From: Candidatus Xenobia bacterium
GTDB taxonomy: Bacteria; Vulcanimicrobiota; Xenobia; Xenobiales; QWHO01
Assembly: GCA_045863235.1 (NCBI GenBank)
Contig: BTUM01000009.1
Location: 68,015 to 132,014 of the forward strand
DNA: 64,000 nucleotides
Direction: 5' to 3'
Below are positions 36,677-54,838 of this stretch, in pieces (positions within the stretch are counted from its first letter, which is position 1; every line of letters starts with the position of its first letter). Under the pieces are notes generated by a model. That model saw only the letters and a list, made by a program, of their open reading frames with translations, ran no database searches and was not told the origin of the DNA. A program made the position numbers and the translations under genes.

Positions 36677-38074
36677 TCAGTCGCGAACCGGAACGCGGAC
36701 TCCGTTGACCACCACGTAGCCGTCACGGGTCTCGACCCGGCCGGCCGGCAGGGGCTCGCTGGCAGGCAGGCGGGCGGTGTATTCCAGATGCCGATCGGTG
36801 AGTCGCACGAAACCCCGCTCGTCATAGCCATAGAGCTCTCGTCGCTGGCGGTCCTCGAAGAGAAGACGCCCATCGGCAGTCTCGCCGCGCAACTCGTACT
36901 CGTTGGCCGGCAACTCGATGCGCCGGGGGGGATCGTCCAGGCGGGTGACGGCCCGGTCGTGCCGCACCAGTCGCCCCTGCACGCTGGCCTTGGGACCGAA
37001 CTCGAGCACCTCGCGGCCCTCGGCGTTGAGACGCAAGATCTTGCCGCCCCCCATGTTCCAGAAGACCGTCCCTTTCGGGGTCACGTGGACATTGGGGCTC
37101 TCCCCCAGGCTCTCGCTCTCCCAGAGCTTGGAGCCATCGCTCGCGAGGCGTTGCAGGCATGACCTGCTGACGTACTGGGGAGCGAAGTGGTCCGGGTCCA
37201 TGCCGGGCCCAAAGCCCATGCCGCCACGAAATCGAAAGGCGTGGGGACCACGGATCTCGATGTTGGTGACCTCCTCGACCAGCACCTCACCCCTCTCCAG
37301 GGGCCAGAAACGACCGTGATAGTAGGAGGCCTTGCCTTCGGCCGGGCGAGCCTCCAGCTTGAGCCGGCCGCTCTCCTGGCCCCCCGGCCCGATCCGCACC
37401 AGCTCGTTGCCGGCCCGGAGCATCACCCCACCTTCCGGGGTGGCCACGGGGGGTTGTGCCCGCTCGGGGGAACCCTGCACCAGCGGCTTGCCGGACTTGT
37501 CGTAGGCCTCGAGCTTGCCTTCGGCCACCAGGTAGAGGCGCCCGGAGCTATCCTGGCAGGCTTCCGAGTAGACCTTTTTGGGGAAAGCGAGTTGGGAGCG
37601 CACCTGACCGTCGCTGCCAAAGCAAACCAGGCCGTCCTGGTTCTTGACGAGCAGGCTGTCCCCATCGGGGCTGACCGTCAGGCTGGAGATGGAGGCGAAG
37701 GGGGTGGGCGACTCCCAGGCGATGGAGCCATCCGGCTCCACCCGGGACAGGTAGGTGGCCTGGCGCGACTGGTAGGCCACGTAAATCTCCCCGCGAGGGC
37801 CCGACTTGAAGGCGACCGGGCGGTAGTCCTGCTGGTCCTTCTTGAGGTCGGCGGTGTGCACCAGCAAGCGGGTGGCCGAGCCCAGCTCCACGCCCTCGGA
37901 GCCGTTTAGGCGCCGCGCGTTGACATCTTCAGGAATTGGCGCGGCGCCGTTCAACAGATTGTCTGCAGTCCCGCCCGTTCTAATTCTGCACAGTTCAACG
38001 GGCGGGACTGTAGCGCTGGCCCTCACCAGGCGCTGGCGCCAGTAGTTGCCGTTGCTGCTCAGGGGCGAGATCAT
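36677..38074 (-). CDS. Beta-propeller-like hypothetical protein with the conserved C-terminal tail motif
   Basis: Repeats PDGSIAW, SDGSKLW; ends RVETRDGYVVVNGVRVPVRD; start ATG 38074 chosen from the upstream motif. Confidence 0.72.
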   Translation of the reverse strand: MISPLSSNGNYWRQRLVRASATVPPVELCRIRTGGTADNLLNGAAPIPEDVNARRLNGSEGVELGSATRLLVHTADLKKDQQDYRPVAFKSGPRGEIYVAYQSRQATYLSRVEPDGSIAWESPTPFASISSLTVSPDGDSLLVKNQDGLVCFGSDGQVRSQLAFPKKVYSEACQDSSGRLYLVAEGKLEAYDKSGKPLVQGSPERAQPPVATPEGGVMLRAGNELVRIGPGGQESGRLKLEARPAEGKASYYHGRFWPLERGEVLVEEVTNIEIRGPHAFRFRGGMGFGPGMDPDHFAPQYVSRSCLQRLASDGSKLWESESLGESPNVHVTPKGTVFWNMGGGKILRLNAEGREVLEFGPKASVQGRLVRHDRAVTRLDDPPRRIELPANEYELRGETADGRLLFEDRQRRELYGYDERGFVRLTDRHLEYTARLPASEPLPAGRVETRDGYVVVNGVRVPVRD

Positions 38075-38082
38075 GCGGCGAC

Positions 38083-38115
38083 ATCCTGCTCCGACTGGCT
38101 GAAAAAAACCTGAAA
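38083..38115 (-). promoter_or_regulatory. TTTCAG-N5-TTTCAG box plus -10-like hexamer
   Basis: TTTCAG-GTTTT-TTTCAG-N10-CAGGAT-N8-ATG. Confidence 0.62.
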
Positions 38116-38140
38116 AAGGGGACGGGTCGAAAGACGCTGA

Positions 38141-40057
38141 GTGCGACAGCTCGCCTTGCTGACCGACCGCAAGTTCTGGCCCCTGTTCTGGACTCAATTC
38201 CTGGGTGCTTTCAACGACAGCTTCCTCAAGAACGCGCTGGTCATCTGGATCACCTACCGCTCGGTCAGCGTGCTCGGCCTCGACCACCAGATGATGGCCG
38301 TGCTGTCGAGCGGGATCTTCATCCTGCCCTACTTCCTCTTCTCAGCCACCGCCGGCCAGCTGGCCGACAAGTATGACAAGGCCTTCCTGGTGCGCTGGAT
38401 CAAGACCATCGAGATCGGCCTGATGGGCCTGGCCACGGCCGGGTTCCTGCTGGCCGGCCACGGCAACCACGCTGGCATCGTGCTGTTGTTGGTGACCATC
38501 TTCCTGATGGGCACCCACTCCACGTTCTTCGGGCCCATCAAATACAGCATCCTGCCCCAGCTCGTAGGCCACGAGGCGCGGCTGGTGGGCGCCAACGCGC
38601 TGGTCGAGATGGGCACCAACCTGGCCATCCTGACCGGCACCCTGCTGGGCGGGGTGCTGATCGCCCTGGCCCAGGGCCCGGTGGTGGTCAGCCTGGCGCT
38701 GCTGGGGGTGGCCCTGCTCGGGCGGCTGGCCAGTCACTTCCTGGGCGCCACCGTGCCGGCCGTGCCCGACCTGAAAGTGGAGCTGAACCCCGCCCCGCCC
38801 ACCGTGCGCATCCTGGCCTTCGTCTATCCCCAGCGGGCTGTCTGGCTCTCCATCCTGGGCAACAGCTGGTTCTGGCTCTACGGCTCGGCCTTCCTGGCCC
38901 TCTTCCCCAGCTACGGCAGGGACACGCTCCACGCCGAGGAGCACGTGGTGACGCTCTTTCTCACCATCTTCTCGGTCGGTGTGGGGATCGGCTCGATCCT
39001 GTGCGAGAAGGTCAGCTTCGACCGGCTCGAGCTGGGTCTGGTGCCCTTCGGCTCCATCGGCATGACCGTCTTCGGCGTGGACCTGTTCTTTGCCGGGGCC
39101 CCCACCGCCGGCCTGGCGGGCCCCGACCAGCTGGTCAGCCTGGAGCAGTTCCTGGCCCTGCCGGCTTGCTGGCGCATCATGGTGGACTTGCTCGGTCTGT
39201 CTCTCTTCTCGGGCCTCTTTATCGTGCCGCTCTACACCCTGATGCAGCAACGCTCGGCCGACAGCCATCGCTCCCGGGTCATCGCGGCCAACAACATCGT
39301 CAACGCCGCTTTCATGGTGACCCAGACCCTGGTGGTGATGGCTCTGCTCCACCTCCAGTTCACCATTCCCCAGATCTTCTTGCTGCTGGGCATCCTCAAC
39401 GCCGTGGTGGCGGCTTACATCTACACCCTCTTGCCGGAGTTCTTCCTGCGCTTTTGCGTCTATCTGCTGGCCCACCTGATCTACCGGCTCAAGAGCTACG
39501 GGGTGGAGAAGATCCCCGAGGGCCCGGCCGTGCTGGTCTGCAACCACGTCACCTTCATCGACTGGTTCTTGATCGCCGCCGACGTGCGCCGCCCGGTGCG
39601 ATTCGTGATGGACCTGAGCTACGCCCGCATGCCCTTTCTGCAGGCCATCTTTCGGGACGCCAAGGTCATCCCCATCGCCTCCGCCAAACGGAGCCCGGAG
39701 GTGCTCGAGCGCGCCTTTGAGCGCATCAGCGAAGAGCTGGAGGCGGGCGAGCTGGTGTGCATCTTCCCGGAAGGCCGGCTGACCGACGATGGCCAGCTGA
39801 GCGAATTCCGACCCGGCGTCGAGCGCATCATTCAGAAAAACCCCGTCCCGGTGGTGCCTATGGCCCTGGGAGGCCTCTGGGGCAGCTTCTTCAGCCGCAA
39901 GGGGGGCCGCGCCCTGAGCCGCTTCCGCGGCCTGTGGAGCCGGGTCACCCTGGTGGTTGGCGACCCGGTGCCCCCCGAGGAGGTCTCGGCCGGCTCGCTC
40001 CAGGTCGTGGTGCAGGAGCTGGTGCACCAGGCCGAGGACAAGCTTCGACCCGGATAG
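38141..40057 (+). CDS. MFS transporter fused to a PlsC-type acyltransferase (LplT/Aas-like)
   Basis: TQFLGAFND, AGQLADK, FFGPIKYSILP; C-terminal NHVTFID and IFPEG. Confidence 0.92.
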   Translation: MRQLALLTDRKFWPLFWTQFLGAFNDSFLKNALVIWITYRSVSVLGLDHQMMAVLSSGIFILPYFLFSATAGQLADKYDKAFLVRWIKTIEIGLMGLATAGFLLAGHGNHAGIVLLLVTIFLMGTHSTFFGPIKYSILPQLVGHEARLVGANALVEMGTNLAILTGTLLGGVLIALAQGPVVVSLALLGVALLGRLASHFLGATVPAVPDLKVELNPAPPTVRILAFVYPQRAVWLSILGNSWFWLYGSAFLALFPSYGRDTLHAEEHVVTLFLTIFSVGVGIGSILCEKVSFDRLELGLVPFGSIGMTVFGVDLFFAGAPTAGLAGPDQLVSLEQFLALPACWRIMVDLLGLSLFSGLFIVPLYTLMQQRSADSHRSRVIAANNIVNAAFMVTQTLVVMALLHLQFTIPQIFLLLGILNAVVAAYIYTLLPEFFLRFCVYLLAHLIYRLKSYGVEKIPEGPAVLVCNHVTFIDWFLIAADVRRPVRFVMDLSYARMPFLQAIFRDAKVIPIASAKRSPEVLERAFERISEELEAGELVCIFPEGRLTDDGQLSEFRPGVERIIQKNPVPVVPMALGGLWGSFFSRKGGRALSRFRGLWSRVTLVVGDPVPPEEVSAGSLQVVVQELVHQAEDKLRPG

Positions 40058-40764: not shown

Positions 40765-41403
40765 ATGATAAAGACTGATCGTCAGGCCCTGCTCACACGC
40801 CTGGCCGCTCTCGAGCGCCAGGGGATCTTCTGGGACTGCGACGTCTCCGCGGCCCGCAGCGACCTGGAGCTGTTCGAGCGCCACACCCCGCCCGAGGAGC
40901 CCCTGGAGCGCACCGCCGACCTCTACGAGACCCTGTTCCGGGATGAGAAAGAGCGCCATCGCGCGGTGGACCCCACCGGCCCGGCCCGCCGGGCGCTGGA
41001 GACGATTCACAGCTGCCTCGAGCCGGGCGAAGACCGGACCCGGGCGCTGGAGGCCTATCGCAAGCTCTGGAGCCACTCGCTCGAGCACGGACTCTACGAA
41101 ACCCCCGGCGAACCGGTGGATCTGACCGCTCGCAAACGCTTTCAGCTCATCGACGAGCACATGCTGGAGGGAGACGACCGCGTTCACTGCGTCCAGCAAT
41201 TTCTGGCCGACCCGCCCAACTTTGCCCAGCTCAAGCAGCAAGAAAGAGAGCGGCGCCAGCAGGAAGAGAGCGAGATGGCCGGGCGCTGGGAGCGCCTTCA
41301 GAAGCCCGAGGGGTGTACCTCTCTGGGCCGGCAGGAGGATTACCTCATCGTGGGCGGAAGCCGGGTGCCCTGCAAGCCCCATGGATCCTCTGAATCTTCT
41401 TGA
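40765..41403 (+). CDS. Hypothetical helical protein with the conserved C-terminal tail motif
   Basis: 212-aa ORF ending SLGRQEDYLIVGGSRVPCKPHGSSESS. Confidence 0.7.
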   Translation: MIKTDRQALLTRLAALERQGIFWDCDVSAARSDLELFERHTPPEEPLERTADLYETLFRDEKERHRAVDPTGPARRALETIHSCLEPGEDRTRALEAYRKLWSHSLEHGLYETPGEPVDLTARKRFQLIDEHMLEGDDRVHCVQQFLADPPNFAQLKQQERERRQQEESEMAGRWERLQKPEGCTSLGRQEDYLIVGGSRVPCKPHGSSESS

Positions 41404-43359: not shown

Positions 43360-44316
43360 ATGCGGATCGGTCTGGACCTGGGCACTTCTACCGTGCGGCT
43401 GGTGGAAGGTCGTAAGCTGGCGGTGCTGTGCCAGCCGAACCTGCTGTTGCAGGATCAGCACTTTCCCGAAGTTCTGGCGGGAGGCGAAACGGCCCGCAAG
43501 ATGGTGGGCCGCACCGCCCAGCACTGGAGCGCCTGTCGACCCGTGGTGCGCAGCCGGCTGGGGTCTCCCCAGGCAGCCCGCCTGCTGATCAAGCCCATGA
43601 TGGAGCAGGCCGGGGGCTGGCGGCGCTTCGGACGGCCCCGCGTGATGGTGGCCACCCCCCTCTCCTCCAGTCCCACCGAGCGTCAGGCGGTGGCCGACCT
43701 GCTGCGCCAGATGGGCATCAAGGAAGTGGAAGGGGTGGCCACCCCGCTGGCCGCCGCCCTGGGCGCGGTGCCGACCGGTCACGAGCCGCCCCCGCTGGTA
43801 CTGGTGATGGGAGCCAGCGTCACCGAAGTGGCCCTGGTTTCGCGCGGCCTGGTGGTCTCAGACTTCCTGCAGCTGGGTGGCCAGACGCTGGACCAGGCGA
43901 TGGTGGCGCACCTGCGCCGCCAACACGGCCTGGAGGTGAGCCTGGAGGCGGCCGAAGAGGTGAAGCGCTCGGTGGGCTCGGCCGACCCGGCCCACGACCA
44001 GCTGACCTGCCGCGTCTACGGGCGCGAGCTGGAGAGCCGGCTGCCCCACTCGGTCGTGCTCACCGGCGAAGAGGTGCGCTCCGTGCTGGCCCCGCCGCTG
44101 AGCGAGGTTCTGCGCCTGGTGCGAGAGGTGCTCGACCGCACTCCGCCGGCGATGAGCAGCGACGTGCTCCAACGCGGACTGACCCTGACCGGCGGGGGAG
44201 CCCACCTCATCGGGCTGGACAGCTACCTGGCCCGCGAGACGGGCCTGCCCGTGCAACTGGCCGAGGAGCCGGAAAATGCGGTGGTGCGAGGCACTCTGGG
44301 AGAATTTGCAGCATGA
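43360..44316 (+). CDS. mreB: Divergent MreB/Mbl-like actin homologue
   Basis: GGAGG RBS; IGLDLGTS, A.KMVGRT, TERQAV, PLAAALG, LGGQTLD, AEEVK, TPPAMSSD, LTGGGA. Confidence 0.85.
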   Translation: MRIGLDLGTSTVRLVEGRKLAVLCQPNLLLQDQHFPEVLAGGETARKMVGRTAQHWSACRPVVRSRLGSPQAARLLIKPMMEQAGGWRRFGRPRVMVATPLSSSPTERQAVADLLRQMGIKEVEGVATPLAAALGAVPTGHEPPPLVLVMGASVTEVALVSRGLVVSDFLQLGGQTLDQAMVAHLRRQHGLEVSLEAAEEVKRSVGSADPAHDQLTCRVYGRELESRLPHSVVLTGEEVRSVLAPPLSEVLRLVREVLDRTPPAMSSDVLQRGLTLTGGGAHLIGLDSYLARETGLPVQLAEEPENAVVRGTLGEFAA

Positions 44317-46172
44317 TCGCCTCTGAGAGCATTGAGCTTCCCCTGGCCCGAGCGGCCACGGCCTGCCAGGCCAGCTGGCTGGAATCGGTCAGCCATCACT
44401 ATGGCGCCGTGAAGGTGGACGCCGGAATCTTGCTGGGCAGCACCCGGGTGCACATCGAGACGCGTGGCAAGGCGGTGGTGCAACCCAGCCGGGTGGCGGT
44501 GGATCCGCGCGGCAAGGTGCTGGCCGTGGGCGAGGTGGCCGAGCGCATGGAAGGCCGCGAGCCCACCGAGGTGCGGGTGCTGCACCCGGTGCGCGAAGGA
44601 GCCGTGGTGGAGCCCGAGCTGGCCCGCCAGCTGGTTTCCCGCCTGCTCAGTCCGGGGGCCCACCTGGCCGCCGCCATCCCGGGCGATCTCTCGGCCGTGG
44701 AGCGAGCCGCCCTGCAGAGCGTGCTCCAGTCGGCCGGGGCCCGCCAGGTCTACCTGGTGGATCAGGCCATCCTGGCCTCGGTAGGTGCCGGCCAGCGCTT
44801 GCTGCAGCCGGAGGCCTGCCTGGTGGTGCACCTGGGCTGCGAGACAGCCGAGATGGCCGTGTTCGCGCTGGGCAGCCGCCTGTGGGGAACCACCTTGCGC
44901 TGGGGTACCAGCCATATGGACCGCGCCCTCATCGAGGAGGTGCGCCGCAACCACCAGATCGTGCTGGACACCCGGGTGGCCGAGCGGCTGCGCCTGGAAC
45001 TGGGGCACGCCCTGGAGGCCGAGGGCTCGCTGGAGGTCAGCGGCCAGGGCCTGGAGGACGGTCAGCCCGCCCCGCTCACCCTGCAGGCCGAAGAGGTCTG
45101 CTCGGTGCTGCGCCCCTTCCTCGAGCAGTTGTCCGAGCAACTGTGCCAGGTGCTGGCCCAGGTCAGCCCGGAAGCGCTGGGCGACCTGATCGCCGGCGGC
45201 GGCGCGCTGACCGGCCCGGGAGCTCGCCTCAAAGGACTGGGCGTCTTTCTCAGCCAGCGCTCGCGCCTGCGACTGGTGCCGGCCGACAGTCCGGGCGAAG
45301 CGGTGGCGCGCGGCCTGGGTGAGCTGATCCGCCAGAAAGCCCTGCGCCAGGTGCTGTTGGCCCGGCGCGAGGCCCGGCCCACCGTGAAGGCGCCCCGCTC
45401 GGGCTGGCTGGTGGCCGGCCTGGCCCTGGCCACCTCGGCCCTGTTGACGGTGGGCTACCTGGGTGAGCTGCGAGCCGGCCAGGCCAATCCGGTCGAGAAG
45501 GCGCTGGGCCAGGTGCTCGATCCGGCCGTCGCCCGGGCCAGCGATCTGGTGGAGCCGGCCAGCCTGGAGCAAGACCGCACGGCCGCCGTGCTGAGCGAGA
45601 AGGACCGTCAGATTCGCGAGCTGGCCTCCCAGAACCAGCGCCTGGAAGGGCTGCTCAAGGCTCGCAACGAGCTGTCCACGGCCCGGCCGGTCGCGGCCCG
45701 GGTGGTGGCTCGCGATCCGGGAGGCTGGATGTCGTTCTGCACCCTGGACGTGGGCTCGCGCGAAGGGATCCGGGTGGGCAACCCGGTCACCACCGCCGAA
45801 GGGCTGGTGGGCCAGGTCACCGAGGTGCGCCCGGATACCTGCCGGGTACGCCTGCTGACCGATTCGCGCGCGGTGGCCGCGGGCCGAGTGAGCCAGCGCA
45901 AGGCCTCGGGCGTGTTGCAGGGGGTGGGGGCCAGCAATCTCGAGCTGCGCTACCTTGACCCCGACGCCCGCGTGAAAAGCGGAGACCTGGTGGTCACCAG
46001 CGGCCAGGACGGGCAGTTCCCGGAAGGGCTCAAGGTGGGCCGGGTGCAGTCGGTGCGGCTGGTGGCCGAAGCCAACTATCAGGCGGCCGTGGTGGCGCCG
46101 CTGGCTCCCCTGGACAGCATGCGCACCGTGCTGGTGCTCCAAACCGGAAGTCGCGCCGTCAGCCTGCGATGA
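44313..46172 (+). CDS. mreC: MreB-like domain fused via a TM helix and coiled coil to MreC
   Basis: N-half has QPSRVAVD, MEGREP, HPVREG, VERAAL, AERLR, LTGPGARL. C-half has ARVVARDP, LDVGSREGI, GLVGQV, VVTSGQDGQFPEGLKVG. One uninterrupted frame. Confidence 0.85.
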   Translation: MIASESIELPLARAATACQASWLESVSHHYGAVKVDAGILLGSTRVHIETRGKAVVQPSRVAVDPRGKVLAVGEVAERMEGREPTEVRVLHPVREGAVVEPELARQLVSRLLSPGAHLAAAIPGDLSAVERAALQSVLQSAGARQVYLVDQAILASVGAGQRLLQPEACLVVHLGCETAEMAVFALGSRLWGTTLRWGTSHMDRALIEEVRRNHQIVLDTRVAERLRLELGHALEAEGSLEVSGQGLEDGQPAPLTLQAEEVCSVLRPFLEQLSEQLCQVLAQVSPEALGDLIAGGGALTGPGARLKGLGVFLSQRSRLRLVPADSPGEAVARGLGELIRQKALRQVLLARREARPTVKAPRSGWLVAGLALATSALLTVGYLGELRAGQANPVEKALGQVLDPAVARASDLVEPASLEQDRTAAVLSEKDRQIRELASQNQRLEGLLKARNELSTARPVAARVVARDPGGWMSFCTLDVGSREGIRVGNPVTTAEGLVGQVTEVRPDTCRVRLLTDSRAVAAGRVSQRKASGVLQGVGASNLELRYLDPDARVKSGDLVVTSGQDGQFPEGLKVGRVQSVRLVAEANYQAAVVAPLAPLDSMRTVLVLQTGSRAVSLR

Positions 46173-46588
46173 AGTGGTGGCTCGCCCCTGCCCTGGTGGC
46201 CGCCGCCCTGATTCAGGGCGGCTGGGGCGTGCCGCTGGACCTGGTCTTGCTGCTCACGATCGCGGCCGCCCGGCGCCGGCTGGTGCCGGGCGGAACCCTG
46301 GTGGGCCTGCTCGGTGGACTCTTGCTGGGGGCGGTGCGGGGGATTGGCTCGGGCCCGCTCTCGGCTCTCTACGTGGCCTGTGGCTGGCTGGCGGGAGCCT
46401 GGTTCGAGCGCGGCCTGGGCACCGGTGCCCGGGCCATGCTGCTGGGAGCCGGCCTCTTCAGCCTGGTGGTGGCCGGGGACACGGTGCTGCGCCTCACCCT
46501 GGGCCAGCCTCTGGAGCTCAGTCAGTTTGCCAGCGCCTGGCGCATCCTTCTCGTGCACGCCGCCCTGACCTGGTGGGTGGCCCGGTGA
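46169..46588 (+). CDS. mreD: Rod shape-determining protein MreD (divergent)
   Basis: Small multi-TM protein with DLVLL and GLLGGLL, between mreC and pbp2. Confidence 0.7.
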   Translation: MKWWLAPALVAAALIQGGWGVPLDLVLLLTIAAARRRLVPGGTLVGLLGGLLLGAVRGIGSGPLSALYVACGWLAGAWFERGLGTGARAMLLGAGLFSLVVAGDTVLRLTLGQPLELSQFASAWRILLVHAALTWWVAR

Positions 46589-46589
46589 C

Positions 46590-48368
46590 GTGACCTCGCG
46601 CCTTCGTCTGGCCCTGCTGGCGGTCCTCGCACTGACGGTACTGGCCGCCCTGGCAACCCGGATGGTGGACATGCAATGGCGCCACGGCTCGGAGTATGCC
46701 GCCGCGGCCCGACGCTCGAGCGTGGTCATCGAGCCGGTGCCGGCGCCGCGCGGGCGACTGCTCGACCGCCGGGGACGTTTGCTGGTATCCAACGAGCCCT
46801 GCTTTCAGCTCACAGTCTTCCCCGCCGAGATGCGCGACCGCAAACTGACCGCCCGGCGTCTGGCCGAGGCCCTGGAGGTCAAGCCCGAGCACCTTTCCGC
46901 CCGCCTCCAGAAGGCTCTCCAACAGGCCCCGCTGGAGAAGCTGGTGCTGCGCCGCTCGCTCACCCCCGGCCAGATCAGTCGCCTCCTGCTGGTGACCCCC
47001 GAGCTGCCCGGCACGGCCGTCGAGGTAGGAGCCCGCCGGCGCTACCTGGCCGGTCGCCTGGCGGCCCACGTGCTGGGGACCATGGGCGAAATCGACGCCC
47101 ACGAGCTGCCCACCCGGCGCAAGCTGGGCTATGCGGCCGGCGATCCGATGGGGCGCAGCGGGCTCGAGCGCCAGTATGACTTCCTGCTGCGGGGAAAGAA
47201 GGGCCAGCGCCACCTGGCCGTGGATGTGCTCGGTCGCACCGTGCGCGTGCTCGAGGTGGTGGATCCGGTGCCCGGCGCCGATCTCCACCTGACGCTGGAC
47301 CGCAAGATTCAGGAGACCGCCCAACGAGCCCTGGCCCAGACCCTGGCCGAGCTGCGGGTGCTCAACCAGGAGGACTCCTCCGGCGCGGTGGTGGTGATGG
47401 AGGCCTCCACGGGACGCATCCGGGCCCTGGTCAGCCTGCCCGACTTCGACCCCGCCCTGTTTGCCCGCGGCATCAAGCCGCGTGATCTGGACGCGCTCTA
47501 CAGCGATCCGCGCCACCCGCTGCTGAGCCGCGCCTATCAGAGCTCGTTCTCGCCCGGCTCGACCTTCAAGCTGATCACCGGCAGCGCGGCTCTGCAAGAG
47601 AAGCTGTGCACCTCGGGCAGCGTGTTCGTCTGCGGCGGCAGCTATATGGGAGCGAGCTGCTTCGTGACCTCGGGTCACGGCGGCATCGGCTTCGTGGACT
47701 CGCTGGCCCACTCGTGCGACGTGGTTTACTACCGACTGGGCGATCAGCTGGGCATCGACCGGCTGAGCCGCTACTGCGCCGCCTTCTCCCTGGGTAAGCC
47801 GACCGGGCTGGACGTGCCGGCCGAGACCGGAGGCCTGCTGCCCACCGCCGCCTGGAAGGAGCGCGAGCTCGGGGAGGAGTGGTATCCGGGCGACACCGTC
47901 AACATGTCCATCGGGCAGGGATTCTTGCTGGTCAGCCCGCTCCAGATGGCGGTCGCCACCGCGGCCGTGGCCAACGGGGGACAGGTGCCCCGCCCCTACC
48001 TGGTAGAAAGAGCCGTTGGGCCCAACGGACGCATCCTGCATCGGGGCCGTCCCAAGCTGCGCAAGCTGCCGGTCAGCAAGCACCACCTTGCAGCCGTGCG
48101 CCAGGGAATGCGCGGAGCGGTGGAGTACGGCACCGGCGTGGCAGCCGACGCCCCCCAGGTGGCGGTGGCCGGCAAGACCGGCACGGTGGAATCCTTCGCC
48201 AACGTGAACAATCCCCACGGTCGCAACCACGTCTGGTTCGTCTCGTATGCCCCGGCCGACAAACCCGAGCTGGTGGTGGTGGTGTTCCTGGAGAAGTCGG
48301 GCGGCTACGGAGGCTCCCTGGCCGCCCCCATCGCTCGCAAAGTCTACGATTTCGTGTATCCGCCATGA
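46590..48368 (+). CDS. mrdA: Penicillin-binding protein 2 (class B transpeptidase)
   Basis: APRGRLLDRRG, GRSGLE, PGSTFK (SxxK), SCD, KTGT. Confidence 0.95.
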   Translation: MTSRLRLALLAVLALTVLAALATRMVDMQWRHGSEYAAAARRSSVVIEPVPAPRGRLLDRRGRLLVSNEPCFQLTVFPAEMRDRKLTARRLAEALEVKPEHLSARLQKALQQAPLEKLVLRRSLTPGQISRLLLVTPELPGTAVEVGARRRYLAGRLAAHVLGTMGEIDAHELPTRRKLGYAAGDPMGRSGLERQYDFLLRGKKGQRHLAVDVLGRTVRVLEVVDPVPGADLHLTLDRKIQETAQRALAQTLAELRVLNQEDSSGAVVVMEASTGRIRALVSLPDFDPALFARGIKPRDLDALYSDPRHPLLSRAYQSSFSPGSTFKLITGSAALQEKLCTSGSVFVCGGSYMGASCFVTSGHGGIGFVDSLAHSCDVVYYRLGDQLGIDRLSRYCAAFSLGKPTGLDVPAETGGLLPTAAWKERELGEEWYPGDTVNMSIGQGFLLVSPLQMAVATAAVANGGQVPRPYLVERAVGPNGRILHRGRPKLRKLPVSKHHLAAVRQGMRGAVEYGTGVAADAPQVAVAGKTGTVESFANVNNPHGRNHVWFVSYAPADKPELVVVVFLEKSGGYGGSLAAPIARKVYDFVYPP

Positions 48369-49468
48369 AGACGCGTACCCTGCTGATATCCTCCAGCCTG
48401 GCCCTGTGGCTGCTCGGCTGCCTGGTGCTCTTCTCGGCCACCCGCTGGCAGGGGAGCGCCGGATTGCTCTTGCGCCAGCTGGCCGCGGGAGCGGTGGGGC
48501 TGAGCCTGGGATTGGCGCTGGCACGGCTGGAGCTGAGCCGGTTGCGCCAGCTGACCTGGCCCCTGTACGGGGCCGGACTGGTCAGCCTGGCGGTCGTGCT
48601 GGCGGCCGGCACCTCGGCCAAGGGGGCCCAGCGCTGGCTCTCTTTAGGCCCGCTGGGCACCATCCAGCCCTCCGAGCCGATGAAGCTTCTCCTGGTGCTG
48701 GCCCTGGCCCACCTCCTTACGCGCCTCCCGGCCCGTCGAGCGGGGGGCTTTCTGCTGGCCTGGGTGCTGACCGGAGTGGCCTTCTTGATGGTGGCCGCCC
48801 AGCCCGACCTGGGCACCGGACTGGTGCTGGTGGCCGTCGCCTTCGGGATGCTGTGGGTGGCGGGCGCCTCGCCCGTCTACCTGGCGGGTGTGGCCGTGGG
48901 AGGTCTGGGAGCGTTGACCTTCGTGCTCAAGGAGTACCAGCGCGACCGCATCATGGTCTTCTTGCACCCGGATCTCGATCCCATGGGCCAGGGCTACAGC
49001 CTCATGCAGTCCCTGACGGCCATCGGCTCGGGCCAAGTGTTCGGCCGGGGGCTCTTCGCCGGCCACCTGACCCAGCAGGGCTTCGTGCCCGAGAACTGGA
49101 CCGACTTTGCCTTTACCGTGGTGGGCGAGGAGCTGGGCCTGGCCGGCAGTCTGGGCCTGCTGCTACTGTGTGCCCTGCAACTGGGCAGCCTGCTGGTCAT
49201 CGCCTGGCGCAGCCAGGACTATCCTCGCCTGCTGGCCACGGGTGTGGCCGTCATGCTGGGCTTCCAGCTCTCGGTCAACCTGGCCATGACCATGGGCATG
49301 GCCCCCGTGGTCGGGATCCCCCTGCCCCTGGTCAGCTACGGGGGCAGCGCACTGATCACCAACCTGGCCGCCCTGGGCCTGGTCGCGGGTCTGGCCCGCC
49401 GAAGTCCACCCCGTCAGGCCACCGTGCACCCCCTGCCCGTGCGCCAGCGACTGCCCCTGGCCGGATGA
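48365..49468 (+). CDS. rodA: SEDS glycosyltransferase RodA
   Basis: GAQRWL, IQPSEPMK, QPDLGT, YQRDRI, PENWTDF, GEELG, GIPLPLVSYGGS. Confidence 0.94.
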   Translation: MKTRTLLISSSLALWLLGCLVLFSATRWQGSAGLLLRQLAAGAVGLSLGLALARLELSRLRQLTWPLYGAGLVSLAVVLAAGTSAKGAQRWLSLGPLGTIQPSEPMKLLLVLALAHLLTRLPARRAGGFLLAWVLTGVAFLMVAAQPDLGTGLVLVAVAFGMLWVAGASPVYLAGVAVGGLGALTFVLKEYQRDRIMVFLHPDLDPMGQGYSLMQSLTAIGSGQVFGRGLFAGHLTQQGFVPENWTDFAFTVVGEELGLAGSLGLLLLCALQLGSLLVIAWRSQDYPRLLATGVAVMLGFQLSVNLAMTMGMAPVVGIPLPLVSYGGSALITNLAALGLVAGLARRSPPRQATVHPLPVRQRLPLAG

Positions 49469-49532: not shown

Positions 49533-50879
49533 ATGAGAATTGCCGAAATCGCCCAGCCGGGTTTCTTCCAGTATCGTCCCAACGCGGCCAGCAGTTCGTC
49601 CGAGGGCGACCGGTTCGAGCCGAGCGGCCCCCAGGAGCCCGTCCGGCTGACCCAGGCGATGCTCGGCGAACTGATGCGCACCAACGTGGGGACCGACCAC
49701 CTGGTGGCCTGGAAGCTGCAACTGCCCGGGGGCCTGGTGCGCGACAATCCCACCTTCGGCCCCGACGGCACGGTCTACGTGCCCCAGTCGGGCGGAACCA
49801 CCCTGATCAACAGCAATGAAGGTCGCATCATCGACCACCACAAATTCGAGCAGCCCTGCGAGGCGGCCGCGGCCATGGCCCCCAACGGCGACCTGCTGCT
49901 GCCCCACAAGGGGCTGACCCGCTATCGTCCCGACATGTCGGAGGTCTGGAATCAAGACAAGGTTCCCTACGGCAACCAGCCACCACTGCTCGGACCCGAC
50001 CAGAGCACCTACGTAGCGGGCTACAGTCCCAAAGGGACGGTCACCCGGGTGACCCCGGACGGGCAGATCGCCTGGTCGACGGAGGTTCGTCGCGGCACAG
50101 GCGACCACATGGATACCCCGATGTCGCTCAGCCCCGATGGAAAGCGCCTCTACGCTGGCGGAGAAGGGATCCTGTTTGCCCTCGACCCGGCCTCGGGCAA
50201 GGTGCTGTGGGGTAAGGGGAAGGCCCATTCCACCGTGCAGGTGGGCTGCCGCCCCCTGGTGACCCCGCGCGACCAGGTGGTGGTCTCTGGGATGAGCAAC
50301 CAGGTGACCTGTTTTGACAGCGACGGCAAGGAGGTCTGGAAATGGTCGGCCCGCTTCGAGAAGCGCAGCGACGAGCTGACCCGCAAAGAGCGCGAGGAGG
50401 CTTTCGGTTGGGGCAACGGGCTGATCGAGTCGAGCCCCACGCTCACCAGGGATGGGCAAACCATCCTGGTGGCTGGTGACGAAAAGTTGCTGGCCCTGGA
50501 TCTCGATGGCAACCTGCGCTGGAAGAAGGAGCTGCCGGGAGCGAGCCTGCTTCGCGACGAGGCCATCCAGGTCGGGCCGGACGGGAGCATCTACGTCAAG
50601 TCAGACCACAATACCCAGGTCTGGGCCTTCAACGAGCAGGGAGAGCAGATCTGGCATTATGCCAACCACAGCCCTAGCGGCTCGGCCTTCATGGCCGTCA
50701 ATCAGGACACGGTGGTCTTCGTCACCCGCGAGGGAAGTGCCGTGGCCCTGCGCCAGGACGCGCTGCGCAAGCGTATCGAAGAGGTGGCTGCCCGCCCGGA
50801 CGATTCGCCCAGCCAGATCCAGGTGGGCAACGGCGTGGTCACCGTGGGCGGAGTGCGCGTCAAGACGCGTGCCCGCTGA
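49533..50879 (+). CDS. PQQ-like beta-propeller protein with the conserved C-terminal tail motif
   Basis: Repeats GPDGTVYV, ALDPASGKVLW, ALDLDGNLRW; ends QIQVGNGVVTVGGVRVKTRAR. Confidence 0.82.
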   Translation: MRIAEIAQPGFFQYRPNAASSSSEGDRFEPSGPQEPVRLTQAMLGELMRTNVGTDHLVAWKLQLPGGLVRDNPTFGPDGTVYVPQSGGTTLINSNEGRIIDHHKFEQPCEAAAAMAPNGDLLLPHKGLTRYRPDMSEVWNQDKVPYGNQPPLLGPDQSTYVAGYSPKGTVTRVTPDGQIAWSTEVRRGTGDHMDTPMSLSPDGKRLYAGGEGILFALDPASGKVLWGKGKAHSTVQVGCRPLVTPRDQVVVSGMSNQVTCFDSDGKEVWKWSARFEKRSDELTRKEREEAFGWGNGLIESSPTLTRDGQTILVAGDEKLLALDLDGNLRWKKELPGASLLRDEAIQVGPDGSIYVKSDHNTQVWAFNEQGEQIWHYANHSPSGSAFMAVNQDTVVFVTREGSAVALRQDALRKRIEEVAARPDDSPSQIQVGNGVVTVGGVRVKTRAR

Positions 50880-51612: not shown

Positions 51613-52656
51613 GTGATCCTCCAGAGCAAGGTCCCCAGGCGCAGGCTGGCCACCAGTCTTGGCCATCTGGCCCTGCTCATGCGCTCGAGCATTCCCATCA
51701 CCACCTCGCTCCAGACCCTGTCGGTCCAGGAGGAGTGCTTGCCACTGCGCAAAGCCTGGGAGGACGTGCTCACCATGGTCGAGACCGGTCACAAGCTCTC
51801 GGGCGCGATGACGCGGCACCCGGCCGTCTTTCCCTCCACCGTGGTCTTGATGGTGCGCGCCGGCGAGGAATCGGGCATGCTCGACGATCGGCTCCAGCGC
51901 GCGGCCGACATGGTACAGCGCCAGGCGGGCTATGAGGAGAAGCTGCGTCAGGCCATGTCAGGACCCATGGTCACGCTCGGTTTCAGCGTGCTGGTGTTAT
52001 TCATGCTCTGCCGCTTTGTGATGCCCCGCTTTACCGAGATGTACAGCTCCATGAACGTGAAGCTCCCCTGGATCACCGCCGTCGCTGTGGGCGCGGTCAA
52101 CTTTCTCAACGACCCGGTCTTTCCAGCCTTTCTGTTGCTGGGAGTGGCCGGAGTCCTGTCTTCCCGCGACCGCCTCAAAAGCTGGCTGTTCCGGGTTGCA
52201 CTGGAGATTCCATTCACCCGGCCCCTGGTAGCCAGCCTTCTGTGCGCCCAGTTCTGCGACACCATCGGCAGCCTCTACTCCAACGGCATCCCCATCCCCC
52301 GGGCCGTACGCCTGCTGGCCGCCAGCACCTGGGAGACGAGCTACTCCGAGCGGCTCGAGCGGGTGGCCTCGCGTACCGAGCTCGACGGCGACCTGAGCCT
52401 GGCCGTGGAGGAGGAGATCGAGTTCTTTCCGGTTTGCCTCGGGGCCATGCTGGTCGTGGGAGCCGAAACGGGGGCCCTCGAGTCGGTGCTGCACTCAGTG
52501 CAGCGACTGATGGACATGGAAGCCGAGTCGCGGCTGGAGGTCTGCCTGGCCATGACCGAGCCCTTGATGGTGGGCGGGCTGGGGCTCTTTCTGGCCGGCT
52601 TCTTCGTGGCCATGCTGCTGCCGATGTACCAGCTGGTCAGCCAACTGAGCCCTTGA
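51613..52656 (+). CDS. Type II secretion system F / PilC family inner-membrane platform protein
   Basis: VETGHKLSGAM..HP.VF, MVRAGEESGMLD, VGAETGAL, EPLM, AMLLPMY. Confidence 0.88.
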   Translation: MILQSKVPRRRLATSLGHLALLMRSSIPITTSLQTLSVQEECLPLRKAWEDVLTMVETGHKLSGAMTRHPAVFPSTVVLMVRAGEESGMLDDRLQRAADMVQRQAGYEEKLRQAMSGPMVTLGFSVLVLFMLCRFVMPRFTEMYSSMNVKLPWITAVAVGAVNFLNDPVFPAFLLLGVAGVLSSRDRLKSWLFRVALEIPFTRPLVASLLCAQFCDTIGSLYSNGIPIPRAVRLLAASTWETSYSERLERVASRTELDGDLSLAVEEEIEFFPVCLGAMLVVGAETGALESVLHSVQRLMDMEAESRLEVCLAMTEPLMVGGLGLFLAGFFVAMLLPMYQLVSQLSP

Positions 52657-52673
52657 GTGCTACAATCAACCAT

Positions 52674-53066
52674 GTGGACCCGAGAAAGCCGTCCCGGGGG
52701 CTCTCTTTGCTGGAGGTGGTGTTCGCCCTGGGGCTGTTCTTCATGGTGTTCTCCTTCGTCTTCGGGGTGTTTCCTGCCGCCTACCGGGCCTCGGCCCACG
52801 GACGGCACCAGGTGACCGCGGTCAACCTGGCTCGCGAATACATGGCCGTGGAGAAGTCCAAGTCTTACGACGCGGTGGTGAGCTCGGGGCCGGTGACCGT
52901 GCCGATCTCGAGCCAGCTCAACGGCGTGACCGTGGTCCACAACTACCAGGTCAACGTGGATGTCAACGAGGTCGAACCGGACAAACAGAAGACGCTGCTG
53001 GTAACCGTCCGGTGGGGGACCAGCGGCAGCAAGGTGGAGCTTGAGACCCTCGTCTGCAAGTGGTAG
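52674..53066 (+). CDS. Type IV pilin-like protein (PilV-like)
   Basis: Prepilin site RG|LSLLEV followed by a hydrophobic helix; TGcTACAAT 7 nt before GTG. Confidence 0.8.
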   Translation: MDPRKPSRGLSLLEVVFALGLFFMVFSFVFGVFPAAYRASAHGRHQVTAVNLAREYMAVEKSKSYDAVVSSGPVTVPISSQLNGVTVVHNYQVNVDVNEVEPDKQKTLLVTVRWGTSGSKVELETLVCKW

Positions 53067-53646
53067 AAGCGGAGCGACCCTGGTCGAGCTCATGGTCAGC
53101 TCGGGCGTGCTCATGCTGCTCATGACCGCGATGTACGCCCTGCTCACCTTCGGAATGCGCTACTACCAGACGGCCCAGGCGGCCGAAACCGTGCACCAGC
53201 AGGCCATGCTGGGGGTGCGCCGGCTGGCCACCGAGCTGCGACTGAGCAACGCCACCACGATCTCCTACCCCAGCCCCCCCACTTCCATCATTTTTCTCTC
53301 GGCCGACCAGGCCAGCGCGACTCCGGGACCGTGGAGCCACACCTCCACCGGCCAGCTGGAGTGGCACAAGTGGGTCTGCTACTACCTCGACGGCACCAAC
53401 CTGATCCGGAGCGAGCAGGCCCTGGGCGCTCCGGTCACCCTGCCCCCGGTGCCGGCTCCGCCCGCCCTGGCCAGCTTCCAGGCTCTGCCCGACAACCGCG
53501 TGGTGGCTCGCGAGCTCAGCGCCCTGAGCATCGGCGCCGGCAGCGCTCCCGGGTTGGTGGAGTTGACCATCACCGCCCGAGCCGCGACCACGACGACCAA
53601 ACTTACCGAGTTCAGCCTGCGCACTCAGACGCGAATGGAGAACTGA
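53041..53646 (+). CDS. Type IV pilin-like protein (PilW-like)
   Basis: SG|ATLVELMV prepilin motif; RRLATELR. Confidence 0.8.
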   Translation: MRPSSASGRSGATLVELMVSSGVLMLLMTAMYALLTFGMRYYQTAQAAETVHQQAMLGVRRLATELRLSNATTISYPSPPTSIIFLSADQASATPGPWSHTSTGQLEWHKWVCYYLDGTNLIRSEQALGAPVTLPPVPAPPALASFQALPDNRVVARELSALSIGAGSAPGLVELTITARAATTTTKLTEFSLRTQTRMEN

Positions 53647-53650
53647 TAGC

Positions 53651-54838
53651 ATGCCCTTGCGACGTCGGGGAATCGCTCTGGTCGTGGTGCTGATCAGCAT
53701 CGGGCTGCTGGGGGTCATCGCCTGGGGGATGGCCGCCATGGGCACCCACACGCTGGACATCTCCCGAAACGCCGTGCAGAACGACCAGGCCCTGCTGGCA
53801 GCCGACGGCGGCGCCTGGCGGGCGGTGGCCGAACTGGCTCGCAACGGGGGCTTTACCGGGTGGAGCACGGCTCAGACCCTGCCCACCACCGGGGCAAGCT
53901 ACACCGTGAGCATCACCAACGCCGGCGATACCGCGCCCGATGGCCAGGTGGTGCCGGCCGACATGGTCTACGTGCTCTCAGCAGGCATCCATCGCGGTGA
54001 GACGCGCCAGGTGGGACTGATGCTGCGAGCCAGTCAGAGCCAGTTTCCGGCGGCCGTGTTCGCGGCCGAAAGAGTCATGCTGGAGGATAACTCGCGGGTG
54101 GACAGCTGGGACTCGACAATTGGCTTCTACCCGGCCGGAGCCCAACCGATCAAAGCCCATGTGGGCACCAACCGGCAAAACAGCAATTCCATCGTGGTGG
54201 AAGATGGCTCTTACGTGGACGGAAACCTGCTCGTGCCTCCCGGCGCCGCCCCGGGAGCCACCCAGATCGACGCCTCCACCGTCACCGGGACAACGATCAC
54301 CATGGCCCAAACCCAGACACTCGATGATGTCGTCCTTCCGGCCGCTCCGACTGGAGCGGACATGGACTACGAATCAGACGCCACCCTGGCGCCCGGGGCC
54401 TACGGCAACCTCGAAATCGAAAATGGGGCCATGGTGACGCTGAGCCCGGGCACCTACGTCTTCAACACGATCCGCATGCGCGAAGGGGGGACCATCGCTA
54501 TCCCCGACGACGCCTCCGCCCCGGTCGAGATTTACGTGGCCGGCGAGGTCGAGATCGAGGACGGCAGCGTCGTGAACACTTCTCGCAAGCCCTCCATGCT
54601 CAAATTCTATGTGCGCGACGGTCCTGTGGAGCTCGATGACGACTCGGGCTCAGCTTACTTCGTCTGCTATGCCCCTCAGGCCAACGTTCGCTTTGACGAC
54701 GCCTCCCGTATGTACGGCTCTCTGGTGGGAAAGGACATCGAGATCGACGAGGACTCGGGGGTCACGTACGACCTCGCGCTCGGCAGCGCTACGGGGGGCC
54801 CGACGACGGTGGAGGTGGTGAGCCGTCAGGAACGTTAG
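53651..54838 (+). CDS. PilX-like minor pilin with a large C-terminal beta-rich domain
   Basis: RRRG|IALVVVL without Glu5; QALLAADGG. Confidence 0.78.
   Translation: MPLRRRGIALVVVLISIGLLGVIAWGMAAMGTHTLDISRNAVQNDQALLAADGGAWRAVAELARNGGFTGWSTAQTLPTTGASYTVSITNAGDTAPDGQVVPADMVYVLSAGIHRGETRQVGLMLRASQSQFPAAVFAAERVMLEDNSRVDSWDSTIGFYPAGAQPIKAHVGTNRQNSNSIVVEDGSYVDGNLLVPPGAAPGATQIDASTVTGTTITMAQTQTLDDVVLPAAPTGADMDYESDATLAPGAYGNLEIENGAMVTLSPGTYVFNTIRMREGGTIAIPDDASAPVEIYVAGEVEIEDGSVVNTSRKPSMLKFYVRDGPVELDDDSGSAYFVCYAPQANVRFDDASRMYGSLVGKDIEIDEDSGVTYDLALGSATGGPTTVEVVSRQER

Follow-up and report, generated by a model that had tools for sequence, protein, structure and literature searches.

In model bacteria, RodZ and non-covalent contacts couple MreC and the peptidoglycan synthase to the MreB filament. 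The Bacillus subtilis paralogs MreB, Mbl and MreBH are catalytically intact, and eukaryotes possess soluble actin-related proteins (Arp2/3, Arp11) which cap or seed filaments. The B. subtilis paralogs are said to copolymerise, and an end-binding model has been proposed for this organism (PMC11208587). Here we describe a Rod locus from Candidatus Xenobia (phylum Vulcanimicrobiota) in which MreB and MreC are a single polypeptide. The window analysed, 64,000 nucleotides of contig BTUM01000009.1, holds one open-reading frame of 619 aa without internal stop (44313–46172) that encodes, in order, an MreB domain, a membrane helix of marginal strength, a coiled coil and the barrel of MreC.

This gene lies within the order mreB'-[mreB-mreC]-mreD-pbp2-rodA, all on the forward strand. 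Directly upstream is a soluble MreB of 318 aa (43360–44316; Pfam MreB_Mbl, E 7e-72), which its tree position assigns to an mbl-like ('solo') paralog clade and which has the phosphate-1 Asp but no catalytic Glu. Downstream, mreD (46169–46588) is divergent, has no family match of its own, Pfam MreD included, and shares 44% identity with the syntenic gene in genome G013, which passes TIGR03426 (shape_MreD). It is followed by pbp2/mrdA (46590–48368; TIGR03423, 573 bits, above cut-off) and rodA (48368–49468; PF01098, E 2e-78; TIGR02210, 322 bits, just below cut-off). An earlier note on this DNA, made from the letters alone, had the fusion coupled to both neighbours by ATGA overlaps. Both are present, at 44313–44316 with the upstream mreB and at 46169–46172 with mreD, but the former coupling holds for the window's genus, whilst most relatives' fusions have their own ribosome-binding site. 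A scan for promoters and terminators gave nothing above chance. A soluble mreB is found directly 5' of all 22 fusions, and pbp2 downstream in 18 of the 19 loci examined, the 19th stopping at a contig end. Such an operon would encode all of a Rod (elongasome) system, with its connection to the cytoskeleton rewired. Elsewhere in the window, three unrelated open-reading frames (36677–38287, 40765–41403 and 49533–50879, the last a BamB/PQQ-like propeller) have a similar tail, roughly V-x-V-G-G-V-R-V, at or near their ends, as do frames on contigs C2 and C8; this tail may serve for export or sorting in a way specific to the lineage. The region 51613–54838 contains a type II secretion F gene, then frames which appear pilin-like by eye.

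Within the fusion, alignment delimits an N-terminal extension of ~35 aa (44313–44417), which is predicted to be disordered with a short helix (pLDDT <50), includes a weakly amphipathic stretch and begins MIASESIE in the window's gene and MLY[TS]ES[MI]E in most relatives. The MreB domain follows (residues 36–352; 44418–45368), matched by Pfam MreB_Mbl (PF06723) over residues 36–341 (E 8e-56, model positions 3–321 of 327); the protein passes this MreB/Mbl family profile with 190 bits against a cut-off of 27, whilst its 188 bits against the NCBIfam MreB models fall below their cut-off of 293. A basic linker (45369–45404) leads to a predicted single membrane helix (residues 365–383; 45405–45461), the MreC coiled-coil helix (residues 417–453; 45561–45671), with a conserved L..EN.RL motif, and the MreC beta-barrel core (residues 459–610; 45687–46142). 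Pfam MreC (PF04085) covers residues 464–610 with its whole model (E 5e-40), and TIGR00219 scores 110 bits, above its cut-off of 93. A model built by AlphaFold on 24 aligned rows (mean pLDDT 79, <50 at residues 1–29 and 353–419) places an actin fold at 37–352, a low-confidence helix at 365–387, a long helix at 417–453 and a barrel at 459–610; profiles and model agree on the coiled coil and succeeding barrel expected of MreC. Foldseek matched the model to solved MreB (4czj, TM 0.92 by target, E 1e-32) and solved MreC (6zlv, 0.91), with 2j5u also matched by the barrel. The continuous MreB–helix–coiled coil–MreC frame noticed earlier is therefore borne out by translation, Pfam, AlphaFold and Foldseek. 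Its "full-length MreB-like domain" stands as regards fold and profile, but the nucleotide site is degenerate and the membrane-insertion loop is deleted in the window's genus; likewise, a hydrophobic segment does lie where a helix had been placed (about 45400–45465), although it is only marginally hydrophobic.

Two independent contigs cross the junction without stop or indel: X1, from a DNA run and possibly from the window's own source sample, covers 45085–45672 and is gap-free over the junction, and X2, from an RNA library of a separate study, covers 45306–46087, again with no gap, though such bridging contigs show neither transcription nor its level. The MreB–MreC fusion is confirmed as a real gene.

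All 44 genomes of the class were searched with a fusion profile, which recovered 23 stop-free fusion genes in 21 genomes, three of them incomplete (G029 and G041 run off their contigs, G005 has a run of Ns in the barrel). They occur in four of five genomes of the window's family (the single miss is a genome 65% complete), in all 16 of the sister family f2 and in the one genome of f5, which belongs to another order, and are found in none of 19 genomes in f3 or three in f4. An intact, full-length fused MreB domain is retained across two orders at 33–41% identity. Separate genes in relatives had been raised in advance as a sign against the fusion; the fused form is conserved in 21 class genomes, whilst the f3 relatives are indeed unfused. 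No stop-free fusion was present among 357 sampled genomes from other classes of the phylum, where three candidates were scored per genome; in three of these genomes mreB and mreC are in frame with a stop between them. Of the 150 proteins listed when 1.84 billion cluster representatives were searched by profile, 26 have both domains. Named database relatives are labelled Vulcanimicrobiota, Ca. Eremiobacteraeota or Ca. Xenobia, with a few under other labels, and are annotated as plain MreB or plain MreC. The phylum's cultured member grows as Gram-negative rods (PMC9758169). A literature search that covered few subscription papers found no account of an MreB–MreC fusion, though some genome survey may have mentioned it before; nor does one figure in a paper on natural bPBP–SEDS chimeras, in 12 of the 16 places where it mentions MreB, MreC or 'fused to' (PMC12516126). 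Within the literature searched, the fusion is a real and undescribed variant of the Rod complex. In two genomes, G031 and G035, the entire fusion operon occurs a second time as a distant copy (L069, L070), and in a 1010-aa protein (P0030) two MreB-family stretches come after a protein-kinase domain.

The window's genome also possesses an unfused mreBC operon on contig C2 (G000:C2:69481-71301, reverse strand, L001) and a stand-alone mreB adjoining atpC-murA. With these two further MreBs, a free MreC and the soluble MreB upstream of every fusion, the proposal that the fusion fixes overall MreB:MreC stoichiometry is not supported. In the C2 operon mreC is in frame three bases after the mreB TAG, and this layout, with mreC in frame directly behind the mreB stop, recurs in 7 of 31 unfused operons, C2 included, so that one stop loss through a single substitution could create a fusion. 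Readthrough of the TAG in the C2 operon would also give an MreB–MreC fusion. The fusion is the only MreC found in five genomes that are 95–98% complete (G015, G017, G025, G027, G041) and in the incomplete G003 and G029. Elsewhere an unfused operon is moderately diverged (g4 and G013) or barely recognisable (G005, G009, G011, G033), and G021 has a second mreC; given the diverged genes of the latter four genomes and this second mreC, it would be too sweeping to regard the fusion operon as the sole mre system of most f2 genomes. Where an unfused operon persists, as in the window's genome, the fusion need not be the main elongasome. The simplest reading of the history of the two systems is an old duplication with differential loss. 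Four g2 genomes carry extremely diverged yet open unfused mreB-mreC genes upstream of pbp2 (L146–L149), whose MreB-like product is missed by Pfam. In f4 no MreB or MreC was found in G040, G042 and G043, the first 100% complete, nor PBP2 above cut-off in the two genomes tested, and f4 is possibly a coccoid lineage.

The phylum has two old MreB paralogs, one of the mreBCD-operon type and one that stands alone. In a careful mixture-model tree of 47 chosen rows, excluding P0035, P0036 and P0040, 16 fused domains form one clade (support 99/94) inside the operon-type paralogs, and seven of the upstream genes form one clade (100/99) within the stand-alone (solo, mbl-type) paralogs. A quick mixture-model tree of 112 rows also puts the fusion inside the operon type; in a FastTree of 169 rows it is not, and P0026/P0029, P0035 and P0036 fall outside the main fusion clade. 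Fused domains have long branches. What the mixture-model trees show is an operon-type mreB that fused to mreC once and early in the class, a placement that FastTree, with more rows, did not recover. The deepest fused pair, P0026 and P0029, keeps the phosphate-2 Asp and a TPPEL motif, and P0026 the phosphate-1 Asp too, suggesting that fusion preceded decay of the nucleotide site. A search for the genomic context of P0026 returned nothing.

This decay is far advanced in the window's gene, in which Leu40, Gln151 and His173 replace the Asp, Glu and Asp of MreB and only the Thr is kept. In Spiroplasma ScMreB5, the Mg sphere is held by residues D12, D156 and E134, mutation of which reduces ATPase activity (PMC9195046), and the matching residues E140 and T167 of Caulobacter MreB are needed for full ATPase (PMC4051119). 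The phosphate-1 Asp is found in 0/22 fused domains, against Asp or Glu in 90/90 other MreB-family rows, the phosphate-2 Asp in 1/22 (His in 19) and the catalytic Glu in 6/22; no fusion has all four Mg/ATP-site residues together. Loss of the phosphate-2 Asp is not universal, given that 9 of 27 sequences in the wider cluster set retain it. The fused actin is thus a predicted pseudo-ATPase that has lost the residues for splitting ATP. The upstream partner keeps the phosphate-1 Asp in 22/22 yet has the catalytic Glu in 0/22, and operon-type MreBs from other classes have Gln at this position in 10/10 rows (L038, L041–L043, L096, L099, L100, L105, L108, L111), which makes loss of the hydrolysis residue a wider trend and only the Asp losses specific to the fusion. 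The stand-alone paralog mostly retains the Glu. Across the 20 fusion-bearing genomes aligned, not one of the MreB-family proteins recovered has all four catalytic residues.

The faces by which MreB protomers meet are in part preserved, as judged by a few interface residues, published ones among them. The dimerisation helix is still there in the fused domain, as are EGREP and G-x5-G-x-P, motifs of the IB/IIB contact. At the CcV118 position of the antiparallel interface helix, Val129 in the window's protein, V or L is found in 19/22 fusions with an adjacent E/D in 22/22 (a comparison of residues alone), and the published longitudinal contacts are K/R at ScK57 and Asp at ScD276 in all 22. Conversely, the TPP motif beside the longitudinal interface is lost, with T in 0/43 and the second P in 30% of fusions, against 80% and 88% of single MreBs (n = 98). 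The upstream partner keeps TPP but has the V118 valine in 0/22, and this loss of complementary contact motifs by fusion and partner suggests heterotypic assembly. With a partner devoid of both the catalytic Glu and the V118 valine, the presumed main filament is itself, by its residues, not canonical. A proline at position 268 is invariant and specific to fusions. The CcS283 position varies in all groups, so that the S283D-like residue seen in one genus does not prove that the fusion acts as a cap.

The membrane helix of the fusion is weaker than that of unfused MreC, with a mean near +1.2 kcal/mol for the former and −0.1 for the latter on the hydrophobicity scale used. It is the single, internal hydrophobic segment, and net charge is higher before than after it in 20/22 fusions (a positive-inside bias), in keeping with the covalent tether across the membrane, and its topology, that had been read from the sequence. 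Both termini of MreB face the membrane side of the filament (PMC9195046), and with 23–32 residues between actin domain and helix a C-terminal anchor is geometrically allowed. The membrane-insertion loop is present in 18 fusions and deleted in four, all from the window's genus, as if the tether had replaced it there. None of the 44 class genomes, the 19 unfused ones of f3 among them, gave a RodZ_C match, as against 2 of 17 from other classes; the control for this search recovered RodZ_C in 5 of 14 reference genomes and missed Caulobacter, so its sensitivity is limited. The window's genome gave no RodZ_C match, no RodZ-like HTH_25 protein and no tblastn match with a RodZ from the same phylum. 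The correlation of fusion with rodZ loss that the earlier note anticipated does not appear, since unfused f3 relatives have no detected RodZ either; an earlier absence of RodZ may have favoured the fusion.

These features probably describe a tethered adaptor, in which an actin protomer, itself inert, is built into filaments of the upstream MreB with MreC, and hence PBP2–RodA, covalently attached to it. The fusion would be a single-pass inner-membrane protein with its actin domain inside and MreC outside. Its actin would no longer cycle ATP yet would keep filament contacts, and would enter filaments made mainly of upstream MreB, so that MreC and, via MreC, the PBP2–RodA synthase would be held covalently on the filament. 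For such an adaptor, a minority or end subunit is, on the contact residues, slightly to be preferred over a full strand. Loss of the TPP motif by the longitudinal interface supports an end position, whilst the retained K57 and D276 positions and the variable CcS283 position weaken the reading as an end cap. Nucleation of filaments by the fusion, proposed from the sequence at the outset, is possible. A bolder version, in which the class runs a hydrolysis-free, two-paralog Rod cytoskeleton whose fused pseudo-actin caps or seeds the ends of partner filaments much as actin-related proteins do, we regard as doubtful.

Other readings of the same residues are less probable than the adaptor. The fused domain might not polymerise at all, and serve as a cytoplasmic regulatory or partner-binding handle, or as a folding anchor, controlling the activation of PBP2–RodA by MreC; loss of both nucleotide-site aspartates and of TPP, the invariant Pro268, the long branches and a conserved N-terminal peptide all fit this, but the retained dimerisation helix, EGREP and G-x5-G-x-P, and a soluble MreB co-encoded at 22/22 loci, make it unlikely. 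Distinctly unlikely, in our judgement, is a processed precursor: signal peptidase would cleave behind the helix, or translation would start internally, freeing MreC and leaving a membrane-anchored pseudo-actin, and the two halves would function separately. The helix is short and Ala/Ser-rich, and ends AxA-like in many f2 sequences as judged by eye, yet this ending is missing in the window's genus and in G013/G025, and marginal hydrophobicity fits a helix packed against partners equally well. The in-frame GTG at 45384 (Val358), in the basic linker of the window's gene, from which the earlier note would have derived free MreC, is not conserved: of three congeners examined, two (G001, G004) have GTC instead, and no start or ribosome-binding site ahead of the helix is shared among the 22 fusions.

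Neutral loss of a stop codon, with the fusion merely tolerated, its actin domain decaying baggage and the upstream gene doing all MreB work, would be easy to arrive at, given the 7/31 unfused operons from which a single substitution suffices. Against this, dN/dS of the fused actin domain is 0.05–0.06 versus two congeners (0.35 versus the third, at which synonymous sites are near saturation), which indicates purifying selection rather than decay, and the domain is full-length across both orders and has conserved residues of its own, leaving neutral loss very improbable. The chance of an assembly or sequencing artefact is negligible: nothing at the window locus points to one, although the outside sequence P0035, which passes from MreB straight to the barrel without a helix, may be such a case, and 23 stop-free genes in 21 genomes, the 26 two-domain proteins among the 150 clusters listed and the contigs bridging the junction all speak against it.

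The tethered adaptor touches on how MreB filaments are coupled to the synthase, where on the filament the synthase sits and whether MreB must hydrolyse ATP. An ancient natural MreB–MreC fusion shows that a covalent trans-membrane link is tolerated and selected, and it offers a ready-made construct for structures of the filament-to-synthase joint. The distribution of catalytic residues suggests that whole lineages keep a Rod system without a catalytically complete MreB. A fused protomer located at the ends of filaments would be a natural instance of the end-binding model put forward for B. subtilis (PMC11208587), and the fusion allows that model to be tested directly.

Compared with described systems, the locus is closest to the Rod complex (mreB-mreC-mreD-mrdA-rodA with RodZ), whose gene set and order it shares except for RodZ, with MreB and MreC folds that match solved structures; it differs in that MreB and MreC are one polypeptide, two mreB paralogs are in tandem, the fused actin has lost catalytic residues and no RodZ was found. 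As with MreB, Mbl and MreBH of B. subtilis there are several paralogs, here operon-type and stand-alone, but those of B. subtilis are soluble and none is fused to MreC. RodZ, the bitopic MreB-binding linker of the MreB–RodZ structure 2WUS, would be similar in outline as a single-pass protein joining cytoplasmic MreB to periplasmic machinery, although the two are unrelated in sequence and the link in the fusion is an actin protomer, where that of RodZ is a helix-turn-helix domain. Natural bPBP–SEDS chimeras likewise fuse two Rod or divisome parts, but join two enzymes (PMC12516126). Arp2/3 and Arp11 provide no more than an analogy, as divergent actin paralogs to compare with one that may sit at the end of a filament with a partner attached; they are soluble and unrelated in context.
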